Shown here piece by piece: positions 10,101 through 56,712 of a stretch of 64,000 nt of DNA. The stretch lies in the NCBI GenBank assembly GCA_002633005.1, contig NMRA01000165.1, positions 439,541 through 503,540 on the forward strand, in the 5' to 3' direction. The translations under genes were made by a program, and so were the position numbers. Under the pieces are notes generated by a model, which was not told the origin of the DNA, did no database searches, and worked only from the letters and a program-made list of their open reading frames with translations. How positions within the stretch are numbered: the stretch's first letter is position 1; each line of letters starts with the position of its first letter. This DNA comes from Phoronis australis. Taxonomy: Eukaryota; Animalia; Phoronida.

Positions 10101-13100
10101 CATTCCATGGCATAATCACAACTCACTTTAGCATCAATTTCTTCAGCTTTTTCATTGGCTTCCTGGTCTATGAAAGCCATCATGTGCTTTATCTGAAGAC
10201 AAAAAAACGACAGTCAGTTACAGATACCCAATGTGAGTGGCGTTCCTTCAGTAGCAACAGAAGCCATCATCTAAGGGCTGTTCCAGCAAAATCTGTATGG
10301 GAGGGGGGGAAGGCACTTTTATTTCATACCCACCGCCCGTATTTTTCATTTATTTCTCCAACCCATGACCCATAATTTTTTAATTATTTTTAATAGGTTA
10401 AAATATAAAATCCAACACTTGCAAACAAATTGCCTCCAGGAGGACCTATTAAGAACTTAGATGACTGACAGACAAGAACTAGTTGTCTTGTCCAATATTG
10501 TCAAAAACTAAAGTAGCCTGTGAGCAATACTTTTGGCAGCCACCAGGTGTCTCTGTTCACCATGTGTCTATAATTTCAATGAACATTTTTTTCATTTATA
10601 AGGATCTATGAATCTCAAACTGTCTCCACGAACTCTTCTATACTTCTATGTCAAGTGAATATTGGAACTTGTTTATCTTACTCCTCATACTTTTTATTTA
10701 AAAATCATCAATTTTCTGATATGTGTTAACACCAGTTCAGTGTTGCATAACTTTTCAATTCAATAGGACTGCAGACAAACAGTTGGCTCAAATCGAGTTG
10801 CCCATGACTTGATTAATGGCTTAGTGAACATATTGCACTCTGTTCACTGGCAATATGGGCTTTTTTGTATTTGGATAAGTTAGGACAATTGCATTTATTT
10901 TTGAGTTTTTACCACTGAAGTAACCAACCTAACATTAACAGGTCAAAAAATACCACCCATTTTTAATGCATTACTTATTACAGGAACGACCACCCATAAT
11001 TTGAGTTTTTTTCTGAAGACCACCACCCATGAATTTTTATTTCTACTGCCGTCCCCCTCCCACACGGATTTTACTGGAACAGCCCTAACACAAAGTGCAG
11101 TAAAATTTCACCAATTCAGGACACAAAATGGCAAAAATGAAATTTTATTGACACAAATTCTATACAAGTTTTATACTGTAGTGAAAAGTGAAAAAGTATG
11201 TAAAATTTTGTTTTTGTCCTTAGGATAAGATCACCTAGTCAAAATGCAACCTGACAAAATTCCCAGGTAGCTAACTGAGAAAATGAGGTACAAAAAACAA
11301 GGAAGTCACAAATGTGGAGGTGCCAAATCATTGCTCACACAAACAGCACATAGTTTGCAAAAGGGAAAACTGGGATAATTGGGATACCTGAATTTCTCAG
11401 TCAAACAGAAAATTAGATACATTGTGAGATGGGTAACACAGAATCCCCCAATTTCCCGTTCCTTTTTGGTTGAACAATTCAAACACTGTCTCTTAATTTA
11501 CTTCCACTGGCATTTTGAGCTTGTGCTAGGATATGTGCCTTGCCAATTTGTGGCGACTTAGGAATTTAGCAGCCCTGCATGACACTGAAGACAGTTTAGT
11601 CCATAAAATTTGAACATATCCATGAAAATCTCTGTAGGTTCACTCGAGCTCCCCTCGCCAAATGCCATTTTGAGGAAGTTATGGAAAATCACACCAGTTC
11701 ATGAACAAAAAGTCCAAGGGACACAAATTTTACTAATTCCTCTGGATATCTTCCATGCTACTTTTTGCAGGTCTCGCACTCAGTTCAGTCAGTCGTTGTG
11801 GCCTAACTCTCATGGGGCCAATTGAGATACCTTTTGGTTATCGTGCGGTGAAAAAGTTAATGGCAACCAAAAAAAGTGAAGTTCTTCGCCAAAGCCATAA
11901 AGAATAAGTACCTCAGACATGCTTCATAAAGGACACACAAAGAACCACAATGGATTGGTGAAGAAAGTAAGTGCTTTTTAAGTGATAATTTTAAGAGTAA
12001 AATGCACTTTTGATGAGGTGAAATCCTCTTATTCGGTGACCGGATTAGTTACTGCCTGTTTCTGCAACACACAGCCCCTTGGCTAACTATTCAGGGTCTA
12101 CAATAGTCCCCATTACTTTCTGTACAAATTTCAAACCATGTATTTTAAATGGGCAGTAGGCCAAATCTGCTCACCAAATAAGAGGTTTTCACCTCGCCAA
12201 GAAACATTTTACATTTAAAATTGTCACTCAAAAATACGCTTACTTTCTTCAGCGATCCTTTCTAGTTCTACACATATCTTCAATGAAGCATAGATCTACA
12301 GCAACTAAGATTTTGGTGAAAATTTTTCATGTTACTTTTTTTAGTCGGCGTTAACTTTTTCACTGTGATAACCCCAGAGAATTTCAATTGACGTCAAGTG
12401 AGTTATATCGACTAAATTGTCTCCAGAGTCATGGTATGTGTTAATTATAATTCGATGTGTATATATGCATGCTTCATTTGATGTTATTCGCTGTATTTCG
12501 AGAAAAGTAACTTTTTATGGGGGTGTACTAATTCCGCTGTATGCCTGTGTCATACAGGGTGATGTAATTGCCTGCAACCCATATAAACACACAGGGATAT
12601 GATTACTAGAGAGACCACTGAGGAGCATTGTAGCCTCTCCCCAGCTGGCTACATGTAGCCAAAACTGATGCTCGACCATCACTCTGGTCAGACAATCAAT
12701 AACCCCTATCGGTGGTCAAGCAAGAGTCAATAACAGCTATTGACAGACACATCACATAGTGGCGAGATTACAAGACCCACCAGATTTCTGGCATATCTAT
12801 GGTACTATGTAATTGCGTACCATACTACTCCCCTTCTTGACTACACTGGTGTATACTACAGGTATGTTCTTAGGGTCCTCAATTCCTCCATTTTGGGGTG
12901 AAAATCAGCCCCATTCCCTCCAAAAATATTAAAAAATCAAGCCAAGTTCCTTTCATGAGGCCCAAAAATTCCCTTCAGCCTTTCAGTGATTGAAAATTCA
13001 CCTCGAGGTTCAAATAACTTGCAAGTCACACATGTGATCAGTGTTATCCACGACCTGTTTTGACTCGATGCAGTAACAAGTTTGGATTTTGCCACGTCGA

Positions 13101-36600: not shown

Positions 36601-39600
36601 CGCTGTTGAAAGTTACTTTACCAAATGACAATAAGGGAACCAAATATCGTAGTCCGCTGAAAAGTACTGAAATTTCAATCAAAGAATTTTCAGGTTCATC
36701 TTTAGCTGAGGACAAAAATACTTACAATGAACAGGTGACAGGTCTCAAACAAGATACTGAAAATGCGCAACAGATGAGCATGATGAAAGGTATGGCAGAA
36801 AGTGTGTCAGAGGACAATAAAGATGCTGGCAATAGTTCATGGCACTTGCGTGATCCCTGTAGGTCATCTGAACCAGACGGAAATACAGATAAGGATACTG
36901 ATGTCCAATACGCTGACAATGATAAGAGCTCCGTTCTGCTAACAAACACTGAAGAGCTGTCTTGCATTACAGATGCTGGAGAAAACAAAACAAAATCTGA
37001 TCGTGATCTTCAGTTGAGAAGCAATATCAGAGAAACAAGTGCTACTGAATGTGGCACCAGTCAGGGTATAGTTTTATGTAACGGTAGTCCTTCTGCCAAA
37101 CATTTGTCTGAAAGTGTTATCACTCAAGATTGTGATGAATTATCTGTGGTGTCTTCAAAACAGACACCTGCAAATGAAAATAAAACTGATAGCACTAAAT
37201 ATGCATCACAGAATGTGGATCCCGCTGATGGTTACCAATCATTAGAATGTCCAAGTGAAGGTGGCACTTTTCAGAAAATTGAAGGAAATACTTCCCAGAA
37301 GACCAACTATGATAATTCACAGAACAGAGACGGTGACACCTCTCAATGCTCAGAAGATGATCCAGTTCAGACCACCAAAGAGGACAGTTCTGAGATGATC
37401 ATGCATGATGGATCCCAGAGCAATGAAGACAATAATTACCAGAATACAGAATATGGCACCATTCAAATAACCGAAGACGAAACTTCTCATAATATAGAAG
37501 GTGATACTTCTCAGAACACTGAAGGTGACTCTCCTCCGAACACACAAGGTGACACTTTCCCAAACACTGAAGGTGACACTTCTCAGAGCACAGAAGGTGA
37601 CACTTCTCAGAGAACAGAAGGTGACACTTCTCAGAGAACAGAAGGTGACACTTCTCAGAGCACAGAAGGTGACACTTCTCAGAGAACAGAAGGTGACACT
37701 TCTCAGAGAACAGAAGGTGACACTTCTCAGAAGACTGAAGGAGATACTTCACAAACATCTTCTGAACATGGCAGTTCAGAGAACATTAAATATGATGCAT
37801 CTCAAACTGGTGTAAAGTGCAACAATACAGTTGTTTCCCCGGAAGTTTTTGATGGGCCACCACAAAAGGGCTCTGAAAGTGTTACAGAAGATCACCTCCA
37901 AAGTGTCGCTGTTGGAAAGGCTATCCCATGTCGAAATAACTTAGCTCCTACACTGCCTGCAATTGACTGTGATGTGGAACACTATCCATGTAATTCTGTC
38001 ACTGTGACTAATGACACAATTAGCCAAACAGATGAAGTGTCCTTTGAGTATGAGACCAGTGTGATGAGTACTCAGACGGAGGATCCAGTTCACAGTACTG
38101 ATATGGGGGTGCAGTACTCACCCTGCATGGATAATGAAACTACACAAACAAGCCAAACTAGTATCACTGGCAGCACCATTTGGACTTCTTTGTCAACCAG
38201 GAGAAAAGAAGACAAAGGTTTTCAGTTTTGTCCCTGTACAGATGAAGTACCGTCGCAAACTGAAAGTAATGGACCAAATGTAATGCAAACTCAAACGAAA
38301 CTTCTGAATTACAGCGAGCAGTTTGCTTCTTTATCTGAGGCCGCAACCAAACAAACTTTGGAAAATGCAAGTGGGGTATGTAACACAATTGGTAGTAAGA
38401 AGAAATTGTGGGATTGCTCAATTATCCAACTAGGCAAGTCGGTGAGCATTTCAAAGAGGAAACAGAGTGCTGAGAGAGAGAAGGAACTGGCAGAGATACG
38501 AAAGTCACAGTGGCAAGCTGCATCTAATATGGTTAGCTGTTTGGGCATTAAACCAGAGAAGGTGAGATTTTCGGTCGATGGAATCAACTTTGTGAAGCTA
38601 GAAACAGGCCCAACTGGCAAAAGTGAGCGCCATCAGTGGATGGAAGACAAATTTATTGAGCGAGCACTGAGACGGTCGCCTAGGAAAGATAAACACATTG
38701 ATGATACAGTTGAGGCACGCGATTCTGAAGTCGGTTTGAATCAACTGGCCAAGAATCAGTACAAATCACCTACTGCATTGCGGCTAGCCATGAATACCTC
38801 AAGTAATGAAATGACTGAGAGGAATGTAAAAGAAGTGTTTGATGAGGCTAAAAACGGCAATTTTGGTGAAATAAGAGGTGGTGACGAATCTATGCCATTG
38901 CCTGGATTATCCAGTTCTGATGTAGTTGAAAACGAAAGTTCATCTACATCTGAAGTAACATCTGTCAGCCTGTCATTGGATAACAGTGAATCTAAGCTGC
39001 AGGTAAGTGGTGATCTTCAAAAGAGATTTCTTAAGACAGCCAGGGCTACCAAGACATTACATCACAAAGGCAAAGATGAGGTCACAGGGCAAGACTGTGA
39101 GCATACTACCACTAGGGGAAATACACACTCTGAAAGAAATCAGTCCAACAATCATGGATATGACATGATTTCAAGTGAGGGTCTTCAAGAAAATGAAAAT
39201 ATTTCAGCTCCAGGAACAAGTCACCATCCTTCAGCTGGCACAAGTCAGTCTGAAAATGTGGTTAGTGGTAAGAACGTCACTGAAGTTAATGGCACTGTCG
39301 GCCAATGTAGAGTTGAAAATACAAAGAAAAAAGTTGAAAATGCTGACATCCCTAATGCTGGTGGTGGTGGGGTTTTATTCCATGGCCCTGCATTCATAAA
39401 AAGTAATTTTCAGTGTTCTTACAGCAAAGGATCAGATTACAATAGCAAAAGAGCAGTGGCAGAGGTGCTTGTTGATGGAGAGGAGTCCAGACACGAGTCT
39501 TCATGTACTACCAAAGCTCAAAGGAGTGATGAATCACATGCGTCAAGAAGACACTTCTGTTTTCCAGTAGATAGTATTTCACAAGACCTAACTACTGCCC

Positions 39601-42600
39601 ATCAGTGGCACAATCTTCACCCAAAAGATAGTCTGACTGTCAATTTGCCTAGTTCACTGTGGCATATGGGGAAGGCTTCATCCTCCAACCAGCCCACTGT
39701 GAGTGTGCACATTCCTGAGTCAGTACGTGAAATGACAGTCCGGTATGGAAATTGCACTCCTGCCGAATTTAGGACTGTGTCTACGAGTAGACCATCACTT
39801 CCAACTCCCTTAAAGTTGGATAGAAGTATGGAAATTCTGAGTTCCTCTTGCAAACATTTGAGTCCCTTGAAGGAAGTTGAGGTAAATGATGAAGAACGGG
39901 CTTATAAACCAGCATGTATTAAAGCTGACATACTGGAAACAGGGCAGCAAAGTAAGGGGCATGTTGGTCAGTCAGAGACAGAACCACTTAACACAGCTCA
40001 TTTTAAGTTCTGGTATGGTTGCAGCCCATCTTTGCTAGCTGCTAAGGAAAAAGGTTTGGGTGTGACAGGCTCTTCTAAGTATAAAACACGTGAAGAGTTG
40101 TGTCCGAAAAAAGGATCACTTCATGCAACGATCAATCAACTAGAGGAAGTTGTGGGTCCGCAGACTGACGTGACTGACATCATGTCTGTTTTGCAGCAGA
40201 TGAATCACTCTCTACAAGAACTGCAGAACTATCAAAGCAAAATGATGTCTGAGAATATAACAAAGTTCTCCACAAAGCAAGCAAGTGATGAAAAGACCAT
40301 CGAGGAAGCTCACACTTCGTCCGTTGCTGGGCATGGTGTATACCGAAGAGACATTAACCTTACTCAGAGTTTCAAGTACAACCAGGTTTGTGTGGATCCC
40401 AATAAGGAGTGCAAGGCATCAAATAGAACCAATGATAGGAGCAGCATGATAGTCAATGTTGGAGAGGAAAGTCCCGATACACGTAGCATTCTGACAGGGA
40501 CCCCACGGGAATTAGTCGATGACTTAGAAAGTATGTACTCACCAGGCCAAAGCGCCATTAGTTCTGGTCTAAGTATTCTGTCCCAAACCCCCAGCGTCAC
40601 CGCTAGCAAGAATTGCTTCGACTTTGAGAGCTGCAGTCTTAGAAAAGAATCAATACGTAGAGACAAGGGTAGTCGGGACTCGTTTAGTCGGAAGTCTGTC
40701 AGATGGTGGCCTGGTCTACATGTCCAGTGCGATGTTGCTGAACACAATTCGGGTGAGTCTGCTCACCCATTAGTGTCAGCAGCTTGTTTTTCTACTCACA
40801 AACAACCTACAATTTCTTTTGCAAAATTAATGCTTCTGGTTGGTATTGAGCATTTCAACTTTTGTTTTGCTTTAATGCTCTGCGCATTTTGCATTAACCA
40901 TCTCGTTGCTGTTATGTAAAGTACAATCTGCATGTTCCTGCACCTGTTATGTTTCAGAAGGAACTCCTAATACTGTTTTCTGTTTGAACATGCACTGTTC
41001 TTGGAAATCTGTTGATGAACCGATAGGTTATTTGAACGTAAAAAATCTTTAAATAGGTTACTTTATTCTCAAAATGGTGTTTTTGTAAGAATATACTCCA
41101 TGCATGGTGCAGTGGTTTTCTTAGTACCATTCCAATACTGGATGAACACTGGACAATGAGTTGTGTCAGATATTTTTTGCCTCATTTTTTAAAATCATTC
41201 ATTACTTATCACTTTTTAGTTATACCGATTTAACGGTATTATGCAGTTTTCATGTGTTTGGCTATGTAATCACAATAAGTGGTTAGCATGCAAAGTCCAC
41301 TTTAATCAACTCTAAACCCATCATCCATCGCAAAAACCAAGTTTGTTTTGACCACTTACCATTAGGAAATAGTTATCAAATTGTCTCTTAGTCATGTTAG
41401 AGGTGACAATAATGCTTGGAATGAAGAAACAGTTCAGTATTGCTTGACACCAGGATCTAGTCGGTGTAACATTTCTGCGCTAAGCATAGTATTACGGAAC
41501 CACAGTCAATTCTTTGCAAACCCAGAAATCACTTTTCATCTCAATATTAAGGAAAAGATTGAAATAAATTTCTTATCGGAAACTAGCTTATTTAAATCAA
41601 AAATTCTTCGTAGGCAGAGAATGGGTCTATAGCCACTTTTTCAAAACTGTGGAATTGTTCTCGACATTCTCACTTGTAAAGAATGAGCAGTCAAGCCTAT
41701 TAATGTTCTTTTAATTTAATTTACTTTCAGAGCAAACGGCAGTAGATGCTTGCCACATGTCAAGTGTGAATCAGTCATCCACACCCTCCACTCAGCAAAG
41801 CACACCAAACACATTGAAGCAATCCGTTAGTCTCGTCGCTAATGTACCCAGTTCATTATTGCTTGTCAACTCACATGACTCTAAAGCTGAAGAGATTTGT
41901 ATGTTTGTTGAGTCTGATGACAGGATCACAGACCAATCAACTTCCAAGATGTCTAAGATAATGAGAAACAAAAAACTTTGCAAGGAAGGATTTGTTCATC
42001 CCAGAGGGATCAGACATTCTCCAATTTCTGATAAAACTAAGTCGCAGTCTGTGGGTCAGGCTATGAAGTCCTCTTCTATGTCTTTACTGGTAGGAGCCAT
42101 CGATTCCCCTGCATCACTGGCTAACATCCCGCAAAAAGTACTCCCTCCCTCCGACAGTCTTCTTGTTGCTGTTACAGAGTCACTGTACCAACGACAGGGG
42201 ATTGACCAACCATCTCATATGGACAATCTTGGTATCAGTCCTTGTTCATTTGAAGAAAGTGGGTCATCAAGTTCGAAAGAAGAGAATTCAACAGCCAAAC
42301 AAGTCATTGTTAACCGGACATCAACACTCACTGTAGAAACGAAACCTCAGAAGTTGTTTAACACAAGCAGCTCAGACAGTACTGTGCATCCACAAGAGAG
42401 TATATCAGAGATGAGCCGTGATGAAATCACGCATTCAAGTCCAAGGTTCTCAACCACGATGTCATCCTCTTCAAGTGACAGCTCTGAGAAACTTGTTAGC
42501 TCAGTTGACCTAGAGGTGGGACACAAGAATAAGCACCGTGATAATGTCCCTGGTCAGCACCGGGATTCCTTGAATGAAAAGGTCATGGACACTCAAGATT

Positions 42601-45600
42601 TTGACCATGTGGAAGAGAACAGGACTTCACACCAGCAAATCGATTATCAACCAACAACAGACTTGTCTACTGCAAGAAACATGGCTCCATTTTTCATGGG
42701 CTGCTCTGACATATTTGATGACTTTGACGTTGCACAATCCTCTAGGTATGGATGTTCCAATATAGTACTCATTTCCCCTCAGTCTGGTTCGGTCTATTCA
42801 ACAAAGGAGGAAGTTAAACCTGCGACAACCAATAAAAAACTATCCGATACTGATTTGTACAAGGTCAAAAGTGCCTCATCTCATACTCGTGAGTGGCGTG
42901 GACAAACAACTAACTTGTACCGCCCTCAAAGAATAGAATCGATCTTCAATGGCACAAATAAACAAAAAGAGGAGCAGCGGCTATGGCAGAAGACAACTGG
43001 TGACGACCTGCAATCGAGTTCCCCTACAGTGCGAAATGAATTGTTACTCTCTGGTTTGCCCAAGCAGACTTCCACACAGACAAATATATCTGACAGTGAT
43101 TGCTTTAAAATTGAACAAAAATCCAGTAGAAATACTCCCAGCACAAAGGAGACATGTAGAGATGTGAATGTTTGTAAATACCAAAAGCCTGTTGCATCAA
43201 ACGTTTCAACACAAATTAGTTCCTCTCATGGAAGTTGTCATGACAAAAGTGAAGAAATTGACAAGACTGGCTTACACCAAAGTTATCCAGTTGGTGGATA
43301 TGTTTTTGCAATTCAGGAGATTCCATTCGGTTTCACGAAATTGAAGCCTCCAATGGTTTCTGTAAGTACTCAATATTCTCACAGCGTTAATGACCTGTCA
43401 GAAGACCATGTGCAGGCTGAGATCAACACGCAACAAGAACAACTATTTCATAGGTTAAGACAGGAAAGAATGCAGGGTACAACATCGAACGTGATTTGCG
43501 ATTTTGACACAATTTTGTTGTCATATATGGCTGCTGTTTTTAAGACCATGTTAAAGAAGAGGTTACAACAGGCCGTCATGTCCAAATATTTTATGCCCGG
43601 CATACAGAGTGTTTTCACTGATCCATGTTTAAGCCTTCTCCATGATGAGAACTTTTCTGGCTTGCAACTAAGTCTCGTACAAACCATAACCAATAACATT
43701 ATGGACAGTATTTTGGATCGTGTTCAGTGTGATGGAAGCCAAAGTAATGTACGATATTCCCTTCCTGGAACAATTCCGAGTTCTCAGACAGATTTCGTAG
43801 TATTGCTTAACAGAGTTGAACAGCGGCTTGACCAAAGTCTCCAGGGGTTTCGCTCCCAGTTGGAAAGGTTAACTGTCAGTGGTTTGATGTCTCAGCCAGT
43901 TGCATCCAGGTTTCAAACTGCTCTAGTACACGTACTTAGTAGTGAATTGCTGCAACCTGTCTTAAATGGAGCACTGACTATGGAACCTCGCACAATTTTG
44001 GTGGTTGGACAGAAGATCGCTCATGCTGCCCTTCAAATAGATGGTGTTCAACAACTGCTGGACAAACTCACTGATCCCCTAACGCCCAGCTGCCAGTCAC
44101 TCGTAGATGACATCAACCGTTCTTCTCGCAATATTTCTTGCCGCGAAATACAGTCATTGTTTCTTTATATCCTGCTTGCTGCAGACGCATGCAGAATTCT
44201 CCAGTCTGATATCACAACTGCAGTCAGACGAGTGGTGACCTCAGAAACGTTCAATGAACAACTCCGTTCAGTTATAGGACGACAGAGAAACTCACCCAGT
44301 GCGGCAAATGACATTGCGTGGTTTTTGACTGACCAAATTCTTGAAACTTTGATAGTTGCCGAAGTGGATCTCGATAAGGAAGCTAATTGTGAATACGATA
44401 TGAACCATGATATACGCTGTGATACTGTAAGGTTTATGAAGGTCGTTGAGGAATGTTTGAGTTTTAGTTCATTGGAAAATCAACTTAGGTCGTGCTCAAT
44501 TCATTTGAAATGTACCGTTAATGCATATCAATCGTTTCTAGCCCGCACAATGCAGGCACCTGTTCGTTACTTACTGCACAACTTGATCAAAACTCAACCC
44601 CGTCATGACGATTTGTTCATGTTTCTGGTCGACCCCATCTTGCACGATTTCGTTGAGCCCTTGTTGCATTGTGGCTTCNTCACAACTGCAGTCAGACGAG
44701 TGGTTACCTCGGAAACGTTCAACGAACAACTCCGTTCAGTTATAGGACGACAGAGAAACTCACCCAGTGCGGCAAATGACATTGCCTGGTTTTTGACTGA
44801 CCAAATTCTTGAAACTTTGATAGCTGCCGAAGTGGATCTCGATAAGGAAGCTAATTGTGAATACGATATGAACCATGATATACGCTGTGATACTGTAAGG
44901 TTTATGAAGGTCGTTGAGGAATGTTTGAGTTTTAGTTCATTGGAAAATCAACTTAGGTCGTGCTCAATTCATTTGAAATGTACCGTTAATGCATATCAAT
45001 CGTTTCTAGCCCGCACAATGCAGGCACCTGTTCGTTACTTACTGCACAACTTGATCAAAACTCAACCCCGTCATGACGATTTGTTCATGTTTCTGGTCGA
45101 CCCCATCTTGCACGATTTCGTTGAGCCCTTGTTGCATTGTGGCTTCGGCGACATTGAACGTATGAAGACATGGCTTATAGAAACGTTAGCTCAAAGTACC
45201 TTGTCTCACAGTTGTATCCCTGCTTTTATTGCTCAAGCACTCCACACAGTCTTTCCTGAGAGGATGTCGTTTAATGTGCACCAGTTCAATTACAACACGT
45301 TGTCAAGCAACCAGTTACTGCCCATTGTGTGTAGGCTGTTGGTAGATTATTACGCTCACCGCGCAACATTTGAGCTTGTCGTTGTACCTCTAACTGAAGT
45401 TGTTAGCGACCAGGGAGTTCATGGTTACTACGGGATGCGCGCAAGTAGTACTGAAGAGGAATGCAATAAACTCATTTCGAATCTGTCGAACTTAGTGTTC
45501 TCCGAAATGTGGCGGCTGATGTCTGGTGGACCACGACTGGATTTCTCCAAACTCTTGCACTTGTCTACCCACATGACCCAATTTCTGGTATCTGTCCAAA

Positions 45601-48600
45601 ATGATCTCCATGCTCACCTAACTTCTCCTTCGCTATCTCAAAGAGCGTCAATAAAAACCGCAGTAGAGAAGATCTTGTCTACTGGATTTCACCCTGCACT
45701 TAGCACAGCCGTAGAAGATGCCACCCTGCGTGTAATTGCTGAAAGGGTTTTATCTTGTGATCAGCGCCAGCCGCTCTCAGAGTTCATAACTATTTCCAAT
45801 ACCAATGAAGTTATTGCGGAAGTGTTAAAACGACCCAACATTCAGAACATCGTCTTAGCGTCATTCGGTTGTTCTCCAGTCGACCTGGAAGGGAATTCTT
45901 GGGGTGTGACAAAAGACAATTGTCTTGATTTTTTCGGCGGACTCTTACACGACTGCCTGCGTGCTGCTGTTCTTTCTACGACAGTATATGATGATGTTCT
46001 GAATTGTCTTCCTTACTTCGACGGGCGAACGAGTATCCATCAATTCATGAAGGAGTTACTGTCCCAGGCTGTTGCAAAGGAAACACTAAAGAAGTTGCAC
46101 GAGTATGTCCTAACATCTTCTAATCAGAAATTTGATTTCTTGTATCCAGTCTCTCCAGATGAGCGACAACATCCCGCTTACGAAGACGCATTCATTCGTG
46201 TCCTTGGTCTGCCGCACAACAGAACCGTTCTTTATCATCTTCTCATGTCTGTTATTCACGAAAAAGTAGTCAAGCCAGTCTTCTCAAAAAAGGTCTCCAC
46301 GAAGGTTCTTGATGTAGGCGGTGATGCTGTAGCCAGCGTCATAGTAGAGGGTTACCAGGCTGGCGCGAATGTAGACTTGTTTGTTCTCCCAGGGACTCAC
46401 TGTTTGGATGCTATCACTGAAGAAGTCGTTGTGGCCGCTTACTCGTGTGGGCTGTTGTCTGATGTCGTGACTGCTATGGAAGCCAAGGAACATACTCCGA
46501 TACCCGAGGTAAGCTTTTAATGAGCAGCTCATGTCTCAAAGTGATAATTAAAGTGACATTATTGACGAGATGAGTCTTTTTTGTGATCAACCTCAGCGCA
46601 TGAATTCTTTGCTGGTTGAGCTTAATTCATCTCAATATTTTAAACTAATTAAACTGGTTGAGACATTGGCCTAGATTTTAGCGAATATCTGGCAAACAAT
46701 GGTGAGACTGGCGCTTCGAAATAAAACCAACGGATTTTTTAGCTCTGGTCAAAGCTTAGAATCACTTCAAAAAGTCTATCACATTGAACAATACATGTAG
46801 TACCAAAAATGACCTTAAAACGATAAAATGTCATGATTTATCTTATAAACAGATATCAACTACCGCAGCTTTCTGCAGACAATGCCGCCTGCTCTGAAAT
46901 AACCCTTTAGGGCGTATACAAGGAAATTCTCCCAAAACTCCCAGGGCTTGTATTTGCATAGAAACTACATTTTCGATCTTTTTAATAAAAACTTTTACCG
47001 ATTTCATGGAAGTGGACTCTTTAGGACCTTGCATTTGCCGTCTCGTACACTCTGCTGTGAAGATTATCTAGGACCGTAGAAAAACGTTCAAATTTGGCTA
47101 ACTTTGGTCCATCATGTTTTAGAAACATTAAAATGTAGTTCTTGGGTCATCCGTGAAATGCATGCTATTGTCTCTCATTCACCGCACGAATCCTTCAGTA
47201 AATAACCTTTCTGAATTATTGAGCCTGTGCAAATTTTGTGTAACATTGGAAAAGGATTGAGTGTCATTTTCAATTATCAGCTCTTCATTATTCTTCAATA
47301 ACTTTGTTACTTTGGTATTTCAATGGATTATAGTTCTAGTACCTCATTGTGTTTTCATGCACGTTGTAATTAGACGATTGCCGTACCTTGTGTTCTATTA
47401 TTACATATTCCAGCGCTAGATGGGGAAAGTCGTTTTTAAAGCTGCATTACCCCTTGTTTAGCCAAAAAAACGAAAGTCGAATTTTGCATTTTTCTCATAA
47501 AGTCGATCTCGTAACATTCCTGTCATCGAAAACGAGGGTTAGCCGACTCTAAAATCGTGCCTTAGCTGTGACTTGAATTACTGACTAATTCGACAATAAT
47601 TGTTCAGTAGATCGGGTGACCGTGGTTATGTTTGAAACCCCTAAACGCATGGGAATTCAACATTAACAAAAACGTCCCTTTAATATCTGTTGATTGGCCA
47701 AAACCCGATTTGGTATCCGTTTAAGTTTCTCATTTTAATTTTGTGCCTAGTAATAAAATAACGGCTATAGTATTGCTAGCGAAGGATGAAAATCTTCTGA
47801 CTTCAATTTGGTGGTGGAAAACTAGATTTCAATGTGTTTTATTGCCACTGAACATTCTGGATTATCTTCTTTATTCAAATGGCATGTGTTCGTGCATTGC
47901 GTCACCGATTGGCGACGTCATTCTGGTGTCCCTGCTGAGCTCATGTAAAACATTATGACGTCACGGGTGTCGACCTGCGCTATGTGATCCAATAAACAGT
48001 CAGTGCTCTTGCTACTGCCCAGGGGCTGCACGTGAACATCTATGAAATGGCCGCAGCTCCTGAGGACGCTAAAGTGACTGAGGTTTGGGGTCCTTCCTAC
48101 AAATACCTTGTGGGCGACGACGAATACGTTATTCAGTCCAGACGTACCCAGGCAACTAGCGACGGGCACGTGCCTGAGATGGTAATCCCCGGGTGTGCCA
48201 CGTCTGCAAGAACGATTGAAATGAGCATCAACAACAATCGTTTATCTGGCTCTACGTCGATTTCGTCGGACGTTGCACATTTGTGCCTCAGTGATGATGT
48301 CCGATATTGCAATATGATTACCGATAGCAAAGATTTTGCACAACAAAAAGGTGGACATGGCGATCCCCCCTCTCAGATGTTGGCTACTGCTGACCTGCAG
48401 TACATAAAAGAAGCTTGCTTACGAGATACGAGAGAATTCTTGCTTCGCTCGCAGAGGAAGAGGTATTATCTCGACAAAACTACGCGTGCCATTGACAGGT
48501 CTATAAGGAAAGCTTTTCGGAGGGAAGAACCATTTGTTAAGAGACCTCAGAAGCATTATCGTAAAAAGCATCAGGTAGAATAGGGCGAGTGCTCAATTTA

Positions 48601-49961
48601 AGAAGAAAGTTCCTTTAAGTATTCGTCTCGATGGTTATTTCGGGTAATATCTTGCAGTTTCATTTTATTTATTTCCTTCCTCCCCGGGTAAATTTTCTCA
48701 AAATGAATTATATTTTTTCTTTTAGGCGCAGTCGAAACCTGGGCCTGTCGAATCCAAACCCAAAACACCAACACGCAAGCCTCATCAAATCTCAGTCGGC
48801 CTTAAGGAGTGGGTTCGCCTGTACGTGGATCATGTACTCTTTAGAACGACACAACAAACAGACACGAAGGCTTTTACCACTAGGACGCCCATTCCTGTCT
48901 TCTCGTCTACTTCGTCAATACCATTTCCCGATAGTCGTTACGGGTCTAGTGTGTCTTCCGTGACAACAGAACATTCCACCATCAGCGTCATCCATGTTGA
49001 AACTCAGACGTCACGTGCTCAGGTTGTGGAGCACTTACCTGCAAGACTCCCGAAAGTCGATAGCAAGTGCGTTGGAGTGACGCCAGACTGTCTAGATGAG
49101 CAACGGTCGGCGGAAACAGGAGAAAACGATAAAGACATTGAGGTTGTCAAGCAATGGCTTGACAATACGGGTGGAGCTTATAAGGAAGTGAAGTCTGGCA
49201 GTAGCCAGAGCAGTGCCACCTCACGAGTTTACGAGGGGGACGATGGGCATCTGATAGTGCCACAGGACAGACGATCTAGTGTTGATACAGGCACTAAAAA
49301 CTTGCATGTCAGTGAACCTTCTAACGATCAATCGGAAGAAACTATTCAGGTACCCAGCAGGCCTCATAGTAAGTCTGTACGTGCCAGTCCGACGTATCCC
49401 GAAGACCAAGCATGGAAGCTCGTGCATAGGGCGTCTGCGCCTCCTTTAAGTAAAGAGCAAACTGTCGCTCTCAGCGCCCTGACTGTCACGCCATCGGACG
49501 AACCCGACGTCTGCACATTATCTCCGCTCTCTTATCAGCCACAGACCACATCCCGTTCGTCATCAACACGCATCAGAAACCCACCTCGAGCTCTGACCCT
49601 ACCTTTCGCAACGGACTGTGTCTCTCATGTTCCAGGCGTCGGTCTTAGCGATCAAGATGCTCTTCTGTTGCGTACCACCGATGCCGCCAGTAGACAGTCG
49701 AGAAGCAGGACGCATATGCATCAGATGGTGATAAACCTTGGACACCGTATCTGTGACATGTTGTCGTCCACGACTGCTGACGACAGCACGGGCGGCATTT
49801 GGCCGTGGTGTGCGGTAGGTGTCGCTGTAGGGCTTGTGGGCGTTTACTGTCTAACGAGGAACAGTTCTTACCCGCGTCTCTTATCTGTAGACAACAATAA
49901 TGTAAGAAGCGTTGTCTGGATACCGTCAGTGAGGCTAGAGAACTTTGTGTCACCTGATTAA
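21533..49961 (+). CDS. BCL2L13: Bcl-2-like protein 13 (Bcl-rambo) orthologue; giant predicted isoform of about 4,203 aa (4,359 aa as assembled)
   Basis: Phase-compatible exons 21533-21662, 22714-22794, 26456-26647, 26993-27072, 27671-27799, 28360-28503, 34436-34522, 35082-40752, 41731-46508, 48023-48574, 48726-49961. Motifs YETKYLVLKFL, TYEQF...NASGWHQ, KRGQKFLS, ADFIIRQGGW and PPESP match recalled human BCL2L13 (YETKYVVLSYL, TYQAF...HASGWNK, RRGQEPLS, AEYIIQQGGW, PPESP). A hydrophobic anchor lies near the C-terminus, and the gene is head-to-head with ATP6V1E. Joining of the giant exons is inferred from splice signals only. Confidence 0.8.
22714..22794 (+). CDS. BCL2L13: BCL2L13-like exon 2 (VDSGQERSFVGQDDLQVDGGGPDYDET)
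   Basis: ttttacag acceptor, GTAAGA donor, 81 nt, phase 1-1, open frame. Confidence 0.8.
23252..23411. repeat. Minisatellite of about 43-46 bp, about 4 copies (CACTAAGATGGACCTACTTCCTGTTATGAGAAACAGGCT...)
   Basis: Read directly from the sequence; imperfect copies. Confidence 0.85.
24405..26022 (+). mobile_element. HINE-like element, copy 3 (opposite orientation)
   Basis: TTTTTTATGCGCCCACATAT start, (GTCC)-like microsatellite, tandem subunits, end GTGGGCGCATTTCAACGCTCCGTGTTGCTCTT. Confidence 0.75.
26456..26647 (+). CDS. BCL2L13: BCL2L13-like exon 3 (DNSLSSVTARS...EIEKGVSPEIDRLRQ)
   Basis: tttccag acceptor, GTTAGT donor, 192 nt, phase 1-1. Confidence 0.8.
26993..27072 (+). CDS. BCL2L13: BCL2L13-like exon 4 with BH3 (ENEVVHQIRTIGDE)
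   Basis: ttctag acceptor, GTTTGT donor, phase 1-0; BH3 core IxxIGDE. Confidence 0.88.
27671..27799 (+). CDS. BCL2L13: BCL2L13-like exon 5 (VNVRFANE...TYEQFKNVMRTLTQDINASGWHQ)
   Basis: ggcag acceptor; non-canonical GC donor (CAG|GCAAGC); 129 nt. Confidence 0.88.
27819..27949. repeat. Tandem duplication of about 63 bp just downstream of the GC donor
   Basis: TGTC[G/A]GTGTACACCAAA..TGAAACATC..CTCATTTGAACA..AGTTTCATTTTGAAATCATGTCAG occurs twice. Confidence 0.85.
28360..28503 (+). CDS. BCL2L13: BCL2L13-like exon 6 with BH2 (VALVMSF...KSADFIIRQGGW)
   Basis: ttgtag acceptor; GTGAGG donor right after GGW (typical Bcl-2 family intron position); 144 nt. Confidence 0.93.
28547..28920 (+). mobile_element. 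Degenerate partial HINE-like copy
   Basis: TTTTATGTGCCCACAT start, TATCTCCAAAAC and AGTGGCAATTTTAGTTTTTACATTT shared with copy 3. Confidence 0.55.
28986..29866 (-). mobile_element. Kolobok-like non-autonomous transposon A with THAP and transposase remnants
   Basis: TTAA|AGGCGAAGGCAACC ... TTTCCTTCGCCT|TTAG; minus strand encodes KQRLKKGTIPSLL..RSAFLKRE (THAP C-terminal AVPT-like box) and [33 protein letters not shown]. Confidence 0.75.
29871..30757 (+). mobile_element. Kolobok-like non-autonomous transposon B with long inverted arms (about 280 bp)
   Basis: TTAG|AAGCGAAGGCAACC ... GGTTGCCTTCACCT|TTAA; arms are reverse complements of each other; interior [24 protein letters not shown]. Confidence 0.78.
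31846..33264. mobile_element. Non-autonomous DNA transposon with CAC..GTG ends and a 5-bp target-site duplication (Transib-like)
   Basis: ACCTG|CACGGGTGAGAAACAACGTGACCGCCGGTCCTC ... GAGGACCGGCGGTCATGTTGTTTCTCACCTGTG|ACCTG; inverted arms of about 150-175 bp built of subrepeats. Confidence 0.8.
34436..34522 (+). CDS. BCL2L13: BCL2L13-like exon 7 (GSIQKTPPESPVFDGSSPPSANVLPSGGP)
   Basis: tttcag acceptor, GTAAGT donor, 87 nt, phase 0-0; PPESP motif. Confidence 0.75.
35082..40752 (+). CDS. Giant coding exon (5,671 nt), Ser/Thr/Glu-rich and probably disordered; inferred exon 8 of the BCL2L13-like gene
   Basis: Lies within the 1951-aa ORF; branch point TACTAAT near 35054, pyrimidine tract and CAG at 35079-35081 (phase 0); donor G|GTGAGT at 40752/40753 (phase 1). 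Confidence 0.85.
37495..37755 (+). repeat. Coding 24-bp minisatellite (TEGDTSQ[R/S]), about 11 copies, with more degenerate units upstream
   Basis: GAAGGTGACACTTCTCAGAGAACA units in frame inside the giant exon. Confidence 0.93.
41731..46508 (+). CDS. Giant coding exon (4,778 nt as assembled); disordered N-half, hydrophobic helical C-half; inferred exon 9
   Basis: ttactttcag acceptor, phase 1, in frame with the 1587-aa ORF; donor GAG|GTAAGC, phase 0. Confidence 0.85.
44212..45146 (+). other. 467-bp tandem duplication separated by a single N; probable haplotype-overlap assembly artefact
   Basis: 44212-44678 matches 44680-45146 apart from five substitutions (four synonymous, one V/A); N at 44679. 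Confidence 0.85.
48023..48574 (+). CDS. Inferred exon 10 (GLHVNIYEMAAAPED...KHYRKKHQ)
   Basis: ctgcccag acceptor phase 0; CAG|GTAGAA donor phase 0; covers the 183-aa ORF. Confidence 0.7.
48726..49961 (+). CDS. Inferred terminal exon with C-terminal transmembrane segment (IWPWCAVGVAVGLVGVYCLTR)
   Basis: ttttctttag acceptor phase 0, in frame with the 378-aa ORF; TAA stop; hydrophobic segment resembles a Bcl-2 family tail anchor. Confidence 0.8.
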   Translation, partial: AQSKPGPVESKPKTPTRKPHQISVGLKEWVRLYVDHVLFRTTQQTDTKAFTTRTPIPVFSSTSSIPFPDSRYGSSVSSVTTEHSTISVIHVETQTSRAQVVEHLPARLPKVDSKCVGVTPDCLDEQRSAETGENDKDIEVVKQWLDNTGGAYKEVKSGSSQSSATSRVYEGDDGHLIVPQDRRSSVDTGTKNLHVSEPSNDQSEETIQVPSRPHSKSVRASPTYPEDQAWKLVHRASAPPLSKEQTVALSALTVTPSDEPDVCTLSPLSYQPQTTSRSSSTRIRNPPRALTLPFATDCVSHVPGVGLSDQDALLLRTTDAASRQSRSRTHMHQMVINLGHRICDMLSSTTADDSTGGIWPWCAVGVAVGLVGVYCLTRNSSYPRLLSVDNNNVRSVVWIPSVRLENFVSPD

Positions 49962-52170: not shown

Positions 52171-53588
52171 ACTGGAGGTTTCACGAAACTGCATATTTGC
52201 TGGTTCATATTTGTCTGACCTCAAAAGAACTTTAACATCGAGTAACGAATCCTCTGTGAGGACTTCTATAGTTTTTTGAAGGCCTAACGCTGTCTCGCGA
52301 TTTTAATTCGACTAAACCATTGATACCGTGGTTCTTTATTGACTAAAAGGATTTGGATAAAACGCCAACATGTTTACAAACAAAAATTTTCAATGGATGT
52401 CTTCGGTTGAGCATCAGTTGAGCAATATAAGGAAGAGCTGCAGGGATTTTCATCTTGGTAAAATGAACTGGTGTTACAAGAAAGACATCTTATGACAAAA
52501 GTCATTTCCACTTTATTCTTTATAAATATATTTACATTAACAGCTGCCATGTTGGCAGTCATCAAGTACTTGGCACTTGTTAAAAACCTGTAATATTTAC
52601 AACCTCTAAAACAACACTGACAATTCAAGATAGCACTGAGCAAGTAAAACAAACATACGCTATGGGACACTGTACTTCATAACAAGGGCATTCTTCACTC
52701 ATTTTCCCCAATTAAAAATAATAGCCAAATTTGGTAATTTTTCAAATATTCAATTACATCCTGAAAATAATGAAAATTCTCAAACATTGTTTGACAGCCA
52801 AGAGAATTATATACTACAACTTTCTTAGTCTTTATGACATCTAAACAGTTCAAGCCAAGAGAATTATAGACTACAACTTTCTTAGTCTTTATTTTTGTTA
52901 AGAAATTTGACAAAACAAAATTTCACATGTCCGCCACGTCAAGAACTAAATAGGTGAAAAACTACCTTGTACACTGGGCATTAGAGCAAACTATTACAAT
53001 TACAATTACAAATATTTTCCAAACAAGCCTTGTGTCAACATATTACAGTGACAGAATTTGTACAAAAGTTATTAAACTCTTGGAACATAAAATCATAATT
53101 CTATAATTACACCTTTGAAAATTAAACAGAAAGCCCTGAAAAATTGACCGGAATGTTCCGGAACTATATTAGATTTTACTTCCAGCAACACCACAGAATA
53201 TTTAGAAAGACTTCAACATGGGACACTGAGGAGAAAAATATGTACAAAGTAGAGATATTAAAATGAATCTACAATAAAATGCTTTCACAAGGAAATCAAC
53301 AAGAACACCTGAACTTAAAAACGTAAGCCCAGCAGTACGGAATGAATGAAATTATCACAACACTGGGTTACAAATGATAGCACACAGAAACGCGAGTATA
53401 GTATATTGCACCAAAGGCTTGGGTAGAACATTGAGATTGCTAGGATGGGTCAGTAAAACATGGGAAATTCTACCACAGACAAGGGGGGCAACAGAATAAC
53501 TGTTGTTTGAAGACAACACACAGCAGTATCAGAGTTCTTCAGTGGATGTCTTGGATGATGCTCTAAGCTCAGTCAAGTCTGATGTCAT

Positions 53589-53630
53589 TCAGTCCAACTC
53601 GAAATCACTGCTATCCTCTACCATGGAGTC
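53589..53630 (-). CDS. BID-like gene, terminal coding exon (DSMVEDSSDFELD*)
   Basis: tcttatag acceptor phase 0; TGA stop; AT-rich UTR follows, with minus-strand AATAAA near 52512 and 52335. Confidence 0.7.
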   Translation of the reverse strand, partial: DSMVEDSSDFELD

Positions 53631-56600
53631 CTATAAGACAGTGTATTCATGTGGATGAACATTCTTAGGATACACCATTCTACCATGTTATAACTACAAA
53701 CACATTTCTATCAACAGTTACTTTACTTACAGAATAACAAGACAATATTTTGTAATACTTCCAGATCAAGGGATGCAAGTACAAATCTAGTAATTGCAGG
53801 CCTTGGAATGACCCATGACAAAAAAGCGGAAATTTTTACGGCCCCAAACATGCGCGCACCCATCCTTTTGCCGACAAAATTTGGGAGGACTAAAAAAAGG
53901 TAACACCTCCAGAAGCGTGCGCCTCTTTTTAGCTCGTCCGTCCACACCCAACTCCACACATTTTTGGCTGCAGAGTCGTAGTATTTGTCACCGCGATTTA
54001 CAATCTCACGAGATGCCATTGAAGAAGTCCACCACGCTTTTTCCAGGTGCCCTGGCAATGTTGACAATTTACGTTCCTCCGAAACACAAAGAGCAACTTC
54101 CGCTTTTCGTGGTGAAATTCGTCGGCAACGCCGCGGTAAGAAAGAAATTTGCCGCGGAAATTTTATATCAAATCCGATTTTTTTTACGCGGAAATATAAT
54201 AAAATGCGCAGACAGAACATTTGAAAAAAGCGGAAATCCGCGTTTCCGCAGAAAATTCCAAGCCCTGTAATTGGTAGATTTTGAAGGATAATTTTCTAAT
54301 ACAGGACTGACTTCAACTCTGGCAATTGAAACTGAAGTAAAAGCTTAGTTTTACCCTTATCTAACTGCACTGTCCCGCATAAAGTGCACACAAATGTCTT
54401 TTACAGTGTGATACACAAAATGGCATCTACACAACAAGTAATCTCCCAAATTAAGGCAGTCTCCTTCCATGTCAAGAGCAACCTTGAGCATTGATAGGCA
54501 CTCACCAGATACCTGTAGAGAAATGAGAGCACACACGTATACATATATGAGGGGTGTCTTTCAACTCACCCATCCGCCTTGGTCAGACAGCCACTCCGCA
54601 AACTTGTCCTCAAAGTACTGCAGACTCATCTCCTTGATCCTACTGGCCTGCTGGGCACCCACACCTACCCACTGTACTGCCGCCTTGGTCAGTTGAAACA
54701 GCACTGCTATCTGCTGGAAACCTTCGGACTTGGGAAGGATGTTATTTACATGCGTTTTAAACTGGTTGTACGTTGCGTCAGTAACAATCTTCTTTAAAGC
54801 TTCAGCGGGGAACTCGCCCTGTATGAAAAAAACAGTTTCTTTCAGAGAGAAGCTACGGATGAAATAAATGTCACACACTAATAAATCTTGAACATTGATC
54901 AAAGCTCAAACGCAATAGTGCATGTAACTAAAAGTAACTAAAAGGTCTCTTACGTTTGCAAATTCATCACCACGGTGACGAAGCAGAGAGGCCAACTTCA
55001 TCTCCAGGGGGTTGTGCAATTCAGAACCAGTGGCTCCACCTGTTGCTGTAAGAACTATAGGACTAGTAGGCTCATAGTCGGAGCTACTTTCCTGGCCAGA
55101 CTCAACCTGCACAATAAACAATAGTATATTTCATTTTCAAAACTAACACATTCTGTATTTCAGTTTGTACACAATTAATTCCAATTAACTAGCTGTTTCT
55201 CTGAAATACAATCATTGTATTAATGGATTACAAATATTGAACTAATTCTTAAAGAAACATGAAAAACATCAGAAAGGTCACATCAGGTGACATTTCACTG
55301 TGGTATGCAAAACATTGCTAATGAAACAAATATGGCATTTATGAATCGAATATTCCTCTATCAGCCAAGTGCATGTGACTATCATCAGACTTTACCTGCT
55401 GAACATAGCTGTCAGCTATCTCTGCCAGTTTCTTGGCCACTTTGTCATATATTACATCCTTCTCTTCTTCTGTTCTGTCCGCCATTGGTTTCTGGGCTAT
55501 CGCACTGGGTGAAAGGGGAGTACCAGCTGTAACAACCAATGTTGATTACGTAATAGCAACAGCGGCACACTAATTACTAAGGGTTGATGAACAATGGCTA
55601 GCACTACTCTATTACTGGTGTTGGATTTGCAATACAGGTGTAGTTAATACCAGATGTGTAGTAGCTACACCTGTAATTAAGTACACAAACTTCTATCAAA
55701 TCTGTTCTATGTGATGCTACTCTCGTTGTTTAAAAATTGTGTACACATTCATGATCTCGGTTTCATGCAGTGCCATCAAGCACAACATGTTTTCTAAATG
55801 TGAAGAAATGAACATTACACAAAGAAGCTGATCGGGAATGTACAGAAAACTCGCGTAAGTAGTATCCAACCAGACCGAGTAAAATCCGACTTGTCTGAAG
55901 GACAAAAGTACCACGGAACTTCTTTTACGAAACAGCAAACCAAGTTAGCTAAGAAGTAATTTGCTCACGGCAACAGGTTCACCTCAAACTATTTTTAAAG
56001 ATGATGCTAAAATAGTCACCTTGTCCACTATCTCCTCCACCATCAATCTGCAGATCATGTTTTTGCGGAGACACTAGCCCGTCCAACTTTAGCCGCCGTC
56101 TCATTTCCTTGCTCTTCACTTTTTCCCCCATTAGCTGTGCATAGCCTGTCAGCTCGTGTTCATCATTTCTTTGATTGTCAACAAGTGAAGTCACAGGCTT
56201 ACTAGACCCACGTGGTGGAAGAGGAGGGGACTCGTCAGATGTCGTTGGATGAGGCTCAGACTGACGTGAGACAAGTGGGGGACCAGGTGGGGCTTTGGCA
56301 GACGTACGGGAAGCATGAACTTTAGATTTACTAGGAACATGAGGTGGCGGAGAGGGCAGACCTCCTTTAAGTTGACGGGGGACATGTGGTGGGGGAGGAG
56401 GTGCACCACCAGCTGGGGAAGGGGCCCGTGGTGGTGGTAGTGGTGGGGGTTGGTCCTCAGACAGTCTGTGTCCATTTGTCTGCCTGTGCACACTTGTGTC
56501 AATGATATTGGAGAATTCTTCAGTAAGCTTTTTGGGAGAAGACCTAGTGAGGCTGGAGGATTTACGATGGCTGCCGCTGTGCTTTGAGTCAACTTGTAGG

Positions 56601-56712
56601 TACTTTTTCTCTGGAAGTGAGGTAGTTGTATGGCCCAAATCGATGCTTGAGCCGGGACTTTCATCGAGGACATCTAGTGATTTAGATTTGTGACCAGGGC
56701 TGCGTAGGCTCT
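53589..56712 (-). CDS. BID-clade Bcl-2 family protein at the syntenic position of BID (5' exon(s) not found); at least 422 aa, no transmembrane anchor
   Basis: Phase-compatible GT-AG exons 56020-56712, 55396-55526, 54954-55106, 54570-54818, 53589-53630. Pro-rich region, DLQID|GGGDS, BH3 VAKKLAEIADSY, second BH3 LASLLRHRGDEF, core TYNQFK...EGFQQIAVLFQL...QYFEDKFAEWLSDQGGW, ending DSMVEDSSDFELD*. Confidence 0.88.
53797..54267. mobile_element. hAT-like MITE in the last intron of the BID-like gene
   Basis: CAGGCCTTGGAAT / ATTCCAAGCCCTG inverted ends; TAATTG duplicated on both sides; repeated GCGGAAA subterminal motifs. Confidence 0.7.
54570..54818 (-). CDS. BID-like gene, Bcl-2 core exon ending in BH2 (EWLSDQGGW)
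   Basis: atacag acceptor, GTGAGT donor after GGW, 249 nt. Confidence 0.92.
54954..55106 (-). CDS. BID-like gene, second BH3 exon (EMKLASLLRHRGDEFAN)
   Basis: tgcag acceptor, GTAAGA donor, 153 nt. Confidence 0.88.
55396..55526 (-). CDS. BID-like gene, first BH3 exon (EEEKDVIYDKVAKKLAEIADSYVQQ)
   Basis: ttacag acceptor, GTAAAG donor, phase 1-0. Confidence 0.88.
56020..56712 (-). CDS. BID-like gene, Pro/Ser-rich exon ending in a caspase-type site
   Basis: tgtttcag acceptor, G|GTGACT donor, 693 nt, phase 1-1, within the 257-aa ORF. Confidence 0.85.

Follow-up and report, generated by a model that had tools for sequence, protein, structure and literature searches.

A gene of the phoronid Phoronis australis raises the question of whether the link that BID, a protein belonging to the Bcl-2 family, provides between caspases and mitochondria is older than the vertebrates. 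The gene occupies positions 53,589 to 56,712 on the minus strand of a 64,000-nucleotide stretch of contig NMRA01000165.1 (GenBank assembly GCA_002633005.1, positions 439,541 to 503,540), here called the window, and the initial annotation had presented it as a candidate BID orthologue that retains a multidomain core. We estimate a probability of about 0.5 that the window holds the C-terminal 421 residues of an expressed Bcl-2 protein without a membrane anchor that is likely a pro-orthologue of BID, probably of BCL2L14, BCL2L15 and BCL2L12 as well, and that is predicted to be activated by a caspase. No paper describing an invertebrate Bid homologue was found in the literature searched. In the passages of a 2022 survey that deal with the gene, Bid appears first in the Chondrichthyes (cartilaginous fish) and is given as absent from hagfish and lamprey (PMC8998228), and the corresponding passages of a 2024 inventory of lophotrochozoan BCL-2 genes name only BAK, BAX, BOK and anti-apoptotic clades, while its supplementary tables may list some of these proteins under other labels (PMC11463336).

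A transcribed gene and its product

The gene comprises five minus-strand exons in the window (A to E, Table 1), which read as a single uninterrupted frame (a split first codon and 421 further codons) closed by TGA, with a phase 1 intron after exon A and phase 0 introns at the three later positions. Junction evidence was drawn from four runs carrying the same species label (X1 to X4) and aligned to positions 52500-64000, and consists of raw reads from X2, X3 and X4 together with contigs from X1, which is presumed to be RNA. Every one of the four junctions is carried by a transcript contig in X1 and by raw reads in the remaining runs (18/17/13/30 in X2, 12/23/13/27 in X3 and 4/6/7/5 in X4), on the strand expected of minus-strand RNA, so that the joining of the five exons, as first proposed, is borne out by transcripts. 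RNA depth over the gene is modest and alike across the three raw-read runs, and its continuation for at least 1.1 kb beyond the stop codon defines a 3' untranslated region.

Upstream, both the reads and a 3050-nt X1 contig extend past position 56712. Loose read ends at 56714 mark a further 5' exon beyond the window, and the contig contributes 1930 nt of upstream sequence, with the frame open across the junction; neither source of sequence found a placement within positions 56714-64000. Exon A is therefore internal, the protein exceeds 422 residues, and the codons for its N-terminus lie beyond the window. The 422-residue product put forward initially was thus right in its frame and splicing, but accounts for no more than the C-terminal portion of what the gene encodes. 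In the intron 5' of exon A, a unit of about 29 bases occurs in three tandem copies (56745-56830), and one X1 contig (joint 56742->56801) passes over 58 bases of this region, a sign that the copy number may vary. Two intronic stretches of the window (53800-54300 and 28900-30400) have high RNA depth on both strands, abundant sequence variants, loose read ends and joints on the opposite strand, and are probably expressed repeats or transposon copies that belong to neither of the genes in which they lie.

The motifs that had drawn attention to the gene, namely LQID|GGGDSGQ, two helices resembling the Bcl-2 homology 3 (BH3) motif, the BH2 motif EWLSDQGGW and an acidic tail, all lie on the minus strand where the initial annotation had placed them. 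Exon A is rich in proline and serine, contains 12 PxxP motifs and is probably disordered, and the spacer also bears Ser/Arg-rich sites and an RRRIS at the exon junction. The segment LLRHRGDEF follows the BH3 pattern L-x-x-x-G/A-D and EWLSDQGGW the BH2 pattern W-x-x-x-GGW, and both align to the BH3 and BH2 of Bcl-xL. The NWGR signature of BH1 was not found: the phoronid gene reads EGFQQ at that place and its relatives mostly GW-x-Q. BH1 is degenerate in several divergent Bcl-2 family members. Exon E encodes an acidic tail of 13 codons, and the highest 19-residue hydropathy window reaches 1.35, a value that speaks for a protein without a membrane anchor and that, with the GGW at the end of exon D, agrees with the intact BH2 and anchorless end described at the outset. 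Counted after LQID, the C-terminal piece measures 198 residues, matching the size of about 198 foreseen for the cleaved product. N-myristoylation of GGGDSG following a cut at LQID was also considered, and rejected: 12 of 26 DG sites in the family, the phoronid GGGDSG included, fit the PROSITE-type pattern, and the pattern is too loose to count. tBID is myristoylated after cleavage.

An unnamed Bcl-2 family of invertebrates

A search of 1.84 billion representatives with exon D alone (83 residues) retrieves 103 proteins at E<=1e-3, 31 of them reaching E<=1e-10, with a top identity of 51-53%, and many of these relatives are 460-932 residues long and match at their far C-terminus; a word-indexed protein search with the same exon, aimed at longer proteins, gave no match. 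Names were looked up for 30 representatives, and the members named are labelled 'uncharacterized', 'hypothetical' or similar throughout. They come from a brachiopod (Lingula), nemerteans (Tubulanus and Lineus), a cephalopod (Sepia), gastropods (Batillaria, Gigantopelta, Nucella and Physella), bivalves (Crassostrea gigas, Crassostrea virginica, Mizuhopecten, Pecten, Potamilus and Dreissena), annelids (Helobdella and Dimorphilus), echinoderms (Antedon, Acanthaster, Holothuria and Diadema) and a hemichordate (Glandiceps). On sequence grounds, the phoronid product is a member of a conserved family of Lophotrochozoa and Ambulacraria that covers at least six phyla, and its spliced form scores 195 bits against a profile (A1) built from 20 C-terminal parts of family members.

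The relatives share a layout that starts with an N-terminal helix of alpha1 type, present as xAxxILEEFL in 23 of 42 full-length members under a strict pattern, and a Pro/Ser-rich, disordered spacer of low complexity and 150-700 residues. It continues with x-x-[VITL]-D-G, a BID-type BH3 helix (helix 1), a short acidic linker, a Bcl-xL-type BH3, a core bearing BH2 and an acidic tail. The BH3 signature of helix 1 in relatives is of the IAERLAEMGDSY type, with Ala in place of Gly in about half of the members, the phoronid gene included, and the second BH3 takes the form LExxIxxxLRxxGD across the family. This second motif is the positional equivalent of the BH3 of Bcl-xL, and the first is the BID-like one. 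Three shorter members (P0073, P0117 and P0078, 291-337 residues, combined in profile A2) carry a single BH3 and no acidic tail and fall within the family at E=6.8e-33 against A1. Here the BID-like helix stands at the place of alpha2, from which we infer that BID-like proteins could arise by loss of the linker and the second BH3. In a quick, unfinished tree the phoronid protein groups loosely with unnamed short forms (83 in the Shimodaira-Hasegawa-like approximate likelihood ratio test, with the fork open) and not with the molluscs. The same tree places Mizuhopecten with C. gigas in one clade and Pecten with C. virginica in another (P0015/P0057 and P0039/P0098), and two paralogues of the family appear to exist in bivalves.

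Membership in the Bcl-2 family is indicated by profile comparisons. Against Bcl-xL, profile A1 gives E=5.5e-14 (55.7 bits), and against Bcl-2 about 1.5e-11; the alignment starts at the second BH3 and extends past BH2 into 'GGWD..'. Pfam Bcl-2 (PF00452) recognizes 18 of the 20 A1 members, mostly under its cut-off, which P0084 alone passes among 26 relatives, and exon D by itself reaches E=5.4e-4 (20.9 bits, cut-off 31.4) and aligns weakly to Bcl-xL. An intron splitting BH2 straight after GGW is a hallmark of the Bcl-2 family, and such an intron is found in both Bcl-2 genes of the window (joint 53629->54569 in four runs, and joint 28502->34435 in the neighbouring gene). The gene is almost certainly real and almost certainly belongs to the Bcl-2 family.

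The fold was assessed on AlphaFold2 (AF2) models of two relatives, P0088 and P0073. In the model of P0088, a 201-residue fragment starting at the DG motif, a disordered linker separates helix 1 from the other helices (predicted local distance difference test, pLDDT, 77; predicted template modelling score, pTM, 0.56), and the structures that VIA ranks highest for it are Bcl-xL (Z 9.5), Trichoplax Bcl-2L2 (9.0), human BFK (8.8) and BAK (8.6). P0073, which is complete at 332 residues, adopts a full Bcl-2 fold, closest to BAX (Z 13.6), BOK (13.3), BFK (13.1) and Bcl-xL (12.9), and its N-terminal helix, modelled with pLDDT above 90, aligns to alpha1 of BAX, BOK and BFK. With Foldseek, neither model matched an entry of the PDB at E<=0.001. 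As modelled, these relatives fold like ordinary multidomain Bcl-2 proteins.

Beyond BH2, 29 of the 83 members with sequence in this region end in [ED]x?[LIVF]D; among the other 54 tails, about 40 (counted by eye) come from genomic fragments whose translation runs on as 'V..' past GGW into the intron, from which it follows that the BH2-splitting intron is conserved. Such an acidic end resembles the EEVD-type ends of Hsp70 and Hsp90, which are bound by proteins with a tetratricopeptide repeat (TPR) clamp, and it also resembles the end of a caspase product; in either role it could dock an anchorless protein. Both the Asp-ending tail and the conserved DG motif would be expected if this Bcl-2-fold protein bound or buffered caspases in the manner of BCL2L12 instead of being activated by them, with the xxxDG motif and the C-terminal ExD acting as substrate-like or product-like decoys. 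BCL2L12 is Pro-rich, carries BH2 and inhibits caspases, and the PxxP motifs of exon A accord with this comparison. The two BH3 helices, however, are well conserved and would be needless for a pure decoy, and we hold this explanation to be very unlikely.

The caspase-type motif of the phoronid gene is not a one-off. Searched for within 70 residues upstream of helix 1, xx[VITL]DG occurs 16-46 residues ahead of that helix in 21 of 37 distinct family proteins, compared with 10 of the 192 windows that served as controls in those proteins, and its variants include IETDG, LETDG, LEVDG, IEVDG, LEIDG and DEVDG. In the AF2 model of P0073, the DEVDG motifs fall within a low-confidence loop of 160 residues between alpha1 and the BH3 helix. 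Chances appear evenly divided on whether a caspase would cut the phoronid protein at the predicted site, and a tBID-like activity of the fragment so predicted is somewhat doubtful.

Sequence comparison with BID itself yields matches below threshold that are nonetheless colinear. Pfam BID (PF06393) aligns to 9 of the 20 A1 members at E<=1 and to 6 of 26 full-length relatives, in all cases below its gathering score, and the matches run from the segment before helix 1 through helix 1 along positions 39-106 of BID (for instance, residues 514-586 of P0054 to BID 43-106), and in P0073 residues 200-283 align to BID 71-153. Helix 1 of the relatives corresponds to positions 70-100 of Pfam BID and to the BH3 of BID in solved structures. 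When A2 was compared with the PDB, mouse BID came first among 16 matches, with positions 200-319 of the profile aligned to BID 73-186 (E=0.0089); tBID, human BID and BID BH3 peptides ranked next, and no Bcl-xL was among the 16.

Gene order at the locus

Three genes follow one another in the window: a gene for V-ATPase subunit E on the minus strand, a BCL2L13-like gene on the plus strand and the gene under study on the minus strand, the first pair head-to-head and the second tail-to-tail. In a clinical paper, the human gene order is given as ATP6V1E1, BCL2L13, BID and MICAL3 in the passage concerned (PMC11472575). The V-ATPase E exon matches cover positions 1-23, 16-53, 54-77, 75-105, 105-128 and 159-190 of the profile; an exon for positions 128-159 was not found in the window, and the gene looks otherwise complete. 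The tail-to-tail arrangement with a BCL2L13-type gene reported at the outset was recovered, the plus-strand neighbour, in which a giant tail follows a Bcl-2 core, itself lying head-to-head with V-ATPase E. We regard the phoronid gene as probably the positional counterpart of BID.

The core of the neighbour contains a BH3 (VVHQIRTIGDEV), a BH1 of GW type and a BH2 ending in IIRQGGW, and its BH2 exon (28360-28530) matches Pfam Bcl-2 at 1.3e-6. After the core, two large exons, one of 5.7 kb and another of 4.8 kb or more, keep the frame open for 3713 codons, and no Pfam domain was detected in this giant tail. A transmembrane-like segment (GGIWPWCAVGVAVGLVGVYCL) is encoded further downstream by an open reading frame (ORF) at 48726-49961, a candidate part of the same transcript. 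The 5.7-kb exon is optional: the joint that skips it (34522->41731) is carried by 20 and 12 reads and its inclusion by 14 and 9, and because skipping shifts the frame and brings a stop 4 codons on, the result would be a short, anchorless isoform made of the core alone. The neighbour is expressed in X2 and X3 and not in X4. Around a single N at 44679 (about 44200-45150, plus strand), some 150 residues of the giant exon's translation are near-exactly repeated on both sides and RNA depth falls from about 48 to about 15, a pattern more suggestive of a duplication made in assembly than of a biological one.

The two Bcl-2 genes of the window align locally with a score of 92 (shuffled sequences, 31.2+-5.5; 0 of 500 shuffles reach 92), and the neighbour scores 62.8 bits against A1, above the 55.7 bits of Bcl-xL. 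By these comparisons, each of the two is the closest detectable kin of the other.

The locus also bears on the proposal that the family is orthologous to BCL2L14 (Bcl-G) or BCL2L15 only, BID having arisen separately in vertebrates, for example from a BCL2L13 duplicate, so that the shared position would not have been inherited. The architecture of Bcl-G is the same (long N-terminus, BH3, BH2, no anchor), the Atlas leads for exon D are 'B2L14 protein (Fragment)' (0.90) and 'Bcl-2-like protein 15' (0.78), human BFK ties with the top structural matches in both models (Z 8.8 and 13.1), and the matches to BID are weak, owing most of their score to BH3. In order and orientation, however, the three genes fit the BID locus, and the Atlas hint is weakened because the BH2 exon of the neighbour is assigned to the same B2L14 cluster at 0.83, which makes the lead non-discriminating. 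We consider a relationship to BCL2L14 or BCL2L15 alone to be rather unlikely.

Table 1. Features located in the window; positions count from its first letter.
Feature	Positions	Strand	Evidence and content
V-ATPase subunit E gene	3556..10213	-	Six colinear exon matches, Pfam vATP-synt_E
BCL2L13-like gene, Bcl-2 core and giant tail	26407..49961	+	RNA joints in X2, X3
BCL2L13-like gene, exons	...-26647, 26993-27072, 27671-27799 (GC-AG intron), 28360-28503, 34436-34522	+	
BCL2L13-like gene, later exons	35082-40752 (optional), 41731-46517+	+	
3' untranslated region	52500..53588	-	Stranded RNA depth 6-35; at least 1.1 kb
Exon E	53589..53630	-	RNA joint; 42 nt, DSMVEDSSDFELD then stop (TGA)
Exon D	54570..54818	-	RNA joint 53629->54569; Bcl-2 core, ends in EWLSDQGGW
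BH2, EWLSDQGGW	54570-54596	-	Exon D; intron directly after the GGW codon
Degenerate BH1, GFQQIAVLF	54696-54722	-	Exon D
Exon C	54954..55106	-	RNA joints; holds LASLLRHRGDEF
Second BH3, LASLLRHRGDEF	54960-54995	-	Exon C, after an acidic/Ser-rich linker
Exon B	55396..55526	-	RNA joints on both sides; holds EEEKDVIYDKVAKKLAEIADSY
Helix 1, BID-type BH3-like, VAKKLAEIADSY	within 55405-55470	-	Exon B
Exon A	56020..56712	-	ORF and splice sites; RNA joint 55526->56020 in X1-X4; internal exon
LQIDG, candidate caspase cleavage motif (P4-P1')	56039..56053	-	3' end of exon A, ...KHDLQID|GGGDSGQ

Possible kinship with BID and a proposed mechanism

A number of results weigh against a BID pro-orthologue activated by a caspase. 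At the level of sequence, the best Pfam BID scores among relatives are 19.7 and 19.5 bits for a gathering score of 25, no match to Pfam BID at E<=10 was obtained with exons A to D of the phoronid gene, no Pfam family was recognized in exon A, B or C taken singly, and exon B has no match in the PDB; the hidden Markov model search for BID suggested initially thus came out negative for the exons of the window. Of the 18.6 bits that A2 scores with BID, about 14 stem from the BH3 segment alone, and a BH3 is short and can arise by convergence; in the phoronid gene, moreover, helix 1 has Ala at the canonical Gly position of BH3. BID is not in the best 60 of 169 matches of A1, in which Bcl-xL and Bcl-2 score far better. 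The structural comparison with BID, also proposed at the outset, likewise turned against the idea, the two modelled relatives being nearer to multidomain members: BID ranks 35 for P0073 (Z 6.0, root-mean-square deviation 9.3) and is absent from the best 50 structural matches of P0088. The latter model is moderate only, with Foldseek TM scores of 0.3-0.5, which are poor because alpha5 and alpha6 are drawn as one helix. The phoronid protein retains BH2 and a second BH3, and in this it departs from BID as a BH3-only protein. At the locus, the neighbour is called BCL2L13-like by its architecture and not by comparison with vertebrate BCL2L13 sequence, and the human strand orientations at ATP6V1E1-BCL2L13-BID are presumed to match those of the window. 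Finally, 16 of the 37 relatives, Lingula and C. gigas included, lack the DG motif under the rule applied.

This last absence would be expected of a non-apoptotic scaffold built on the Bcl-2 fold, in which the DG motif and the BH3-like helices serve contacts with SH3 domains, kinases or TPR proteins and no caspase cuts. A long, disordered spacer rich in PxxP and serine, a degenerate BH1 and a similarly modest expression depth in all three raw-read RNA runs point in the same direction. Set against this, the motif is concentrated at a single, fixed position, its P4-P2 residues are like those preferred by initiator caspases, and the family maintains two conserved BH3 signatures together with an intact BH2. 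A scaffold of this kind seems unlikely to us.

The proposal that the gene is an invertebrate BID orthologue is supported in part, by its position, by the family-wide motif and by the colinear BID matches below threshold, but not by the better matches to Bcl-xL, the multidomain folds or the lack of any BID match for the exons of the window. Profile searches with A1 and A2 returned unnamed family members only, and no vertebrate BID, BCL2L12, BCL2L14 or BCL2L15. Under our reading of a caspase-activated pro-orthologue, the protein before cleavage would reside in the cytosol as a Bcl-2 fold, with alpha1 tethered through a regulated spacer of great length, and these two elements together would make the first BH3 inaccessible. 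An initiator-type caspase with a preference for (L/I)-x-x-D would cut at LQID|G, thereby removing alpha1 and the spacer and freeing a 198-residue fragment that starts just ahead of the BID-type BH3. At mitochondria the fragment may then, like tBID, use this BH3 to bind partners of the pro-survival or BAX/BAK type, and BID would be a derivative without the second BH3 and BH2. We further put forward, as a tentative extension, that the family represents a single bilaterian gene of the type ancestral to BID, BCL2L14, BCL2L15 and BCL2L12, caspase-gated, anchorless, provided with two BH3s and placed beside BCL2L13 since before the split of protostomes and deuterostomes.

The likeness to BID resides in the position beside a BCL2L13-type gene and V-ATPase E, in the missing membrane anchor and in an (L/I)-x-x-D|G motif within a stretch predicted to be disordered ahead of BH3. 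It extends to the type of this BH3 (VAKKLAEIADSY in the phoronid gene, IAERLAEMGDSY in relatives and IARHLAQVGDSM in BID) and to the separation of alpha1 and BH3 by a putatively cleavable loop, seen in the models of relatives. The cleavage site of BID reads LQTD in the abstract of a published account (PMC12319900). Unlike BID, the phoronid protein has a BH2, a Bcl-xL-type second BH3 and an acidic C-terminal tail, the family spacer counts hundreds of residues, compared with 42 in BID, the gathering score of Pfam BID is not reached, and the fold is nearer to BAX, BOK, BFK and Bcl-xL than to the nuclear magnetic resonance structure of BID.

Other Bcl-2 family members share parts of this layout. 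BCL2L14, BCL2L15 (Bfk) and BCL2L12, in their vertebrate architectures, are anchorless and combine BH3 with BH2, BCL2L12 being Pro-rich as well, and human BCL2L14 ends in an acidic tail of EEVD type. None of the three is known to lie beside BCL2L13 in vertebrates, and each has one BH3 helix, compared with two in the phoronid gene. The BCL2L13-like core next door (BCL2L13 is also known as Bcl-rambo) is the closest relative of the family detectable in the window, but in the BCL2L13 type the core is N-terminal and followed by a long tail and an anchor, whereas in the gene under study it is C-terminal and anchorless. Bcl-xL and Bcl-2 provide the best sequence-profile matches, from BH3 through BH2, and both are cut by caspases in the loop between alpha1 and alpha2 and thereby become pro-death. 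The phoronid protein differs from them in lacking BH4, NWGR and a C-terminal anchor, and in having an extra BH3-like helix and a far longer loop.

What appears to be new is an unusual Bcl-2 layout, with alpha1, a giant loop, a caspase-type motif, two BH3s, BH2 and an acidic end, encoded at the locus of BID. It offers a concrete candidate for a pre-vertebrate link between caspases and mitochondria that is testable in oyster, sea urchin, sea star and Lingula, and outlines a possible route from a multidomain protein to a 'BH3-only' protein with a Bcl-2 fold. If the proposal holds, amplification of the caspase signal at the mitochondrion would be ancestral to bilaterians, and BID would be a stripped-down descendant that has lost BH2 and one BH3.

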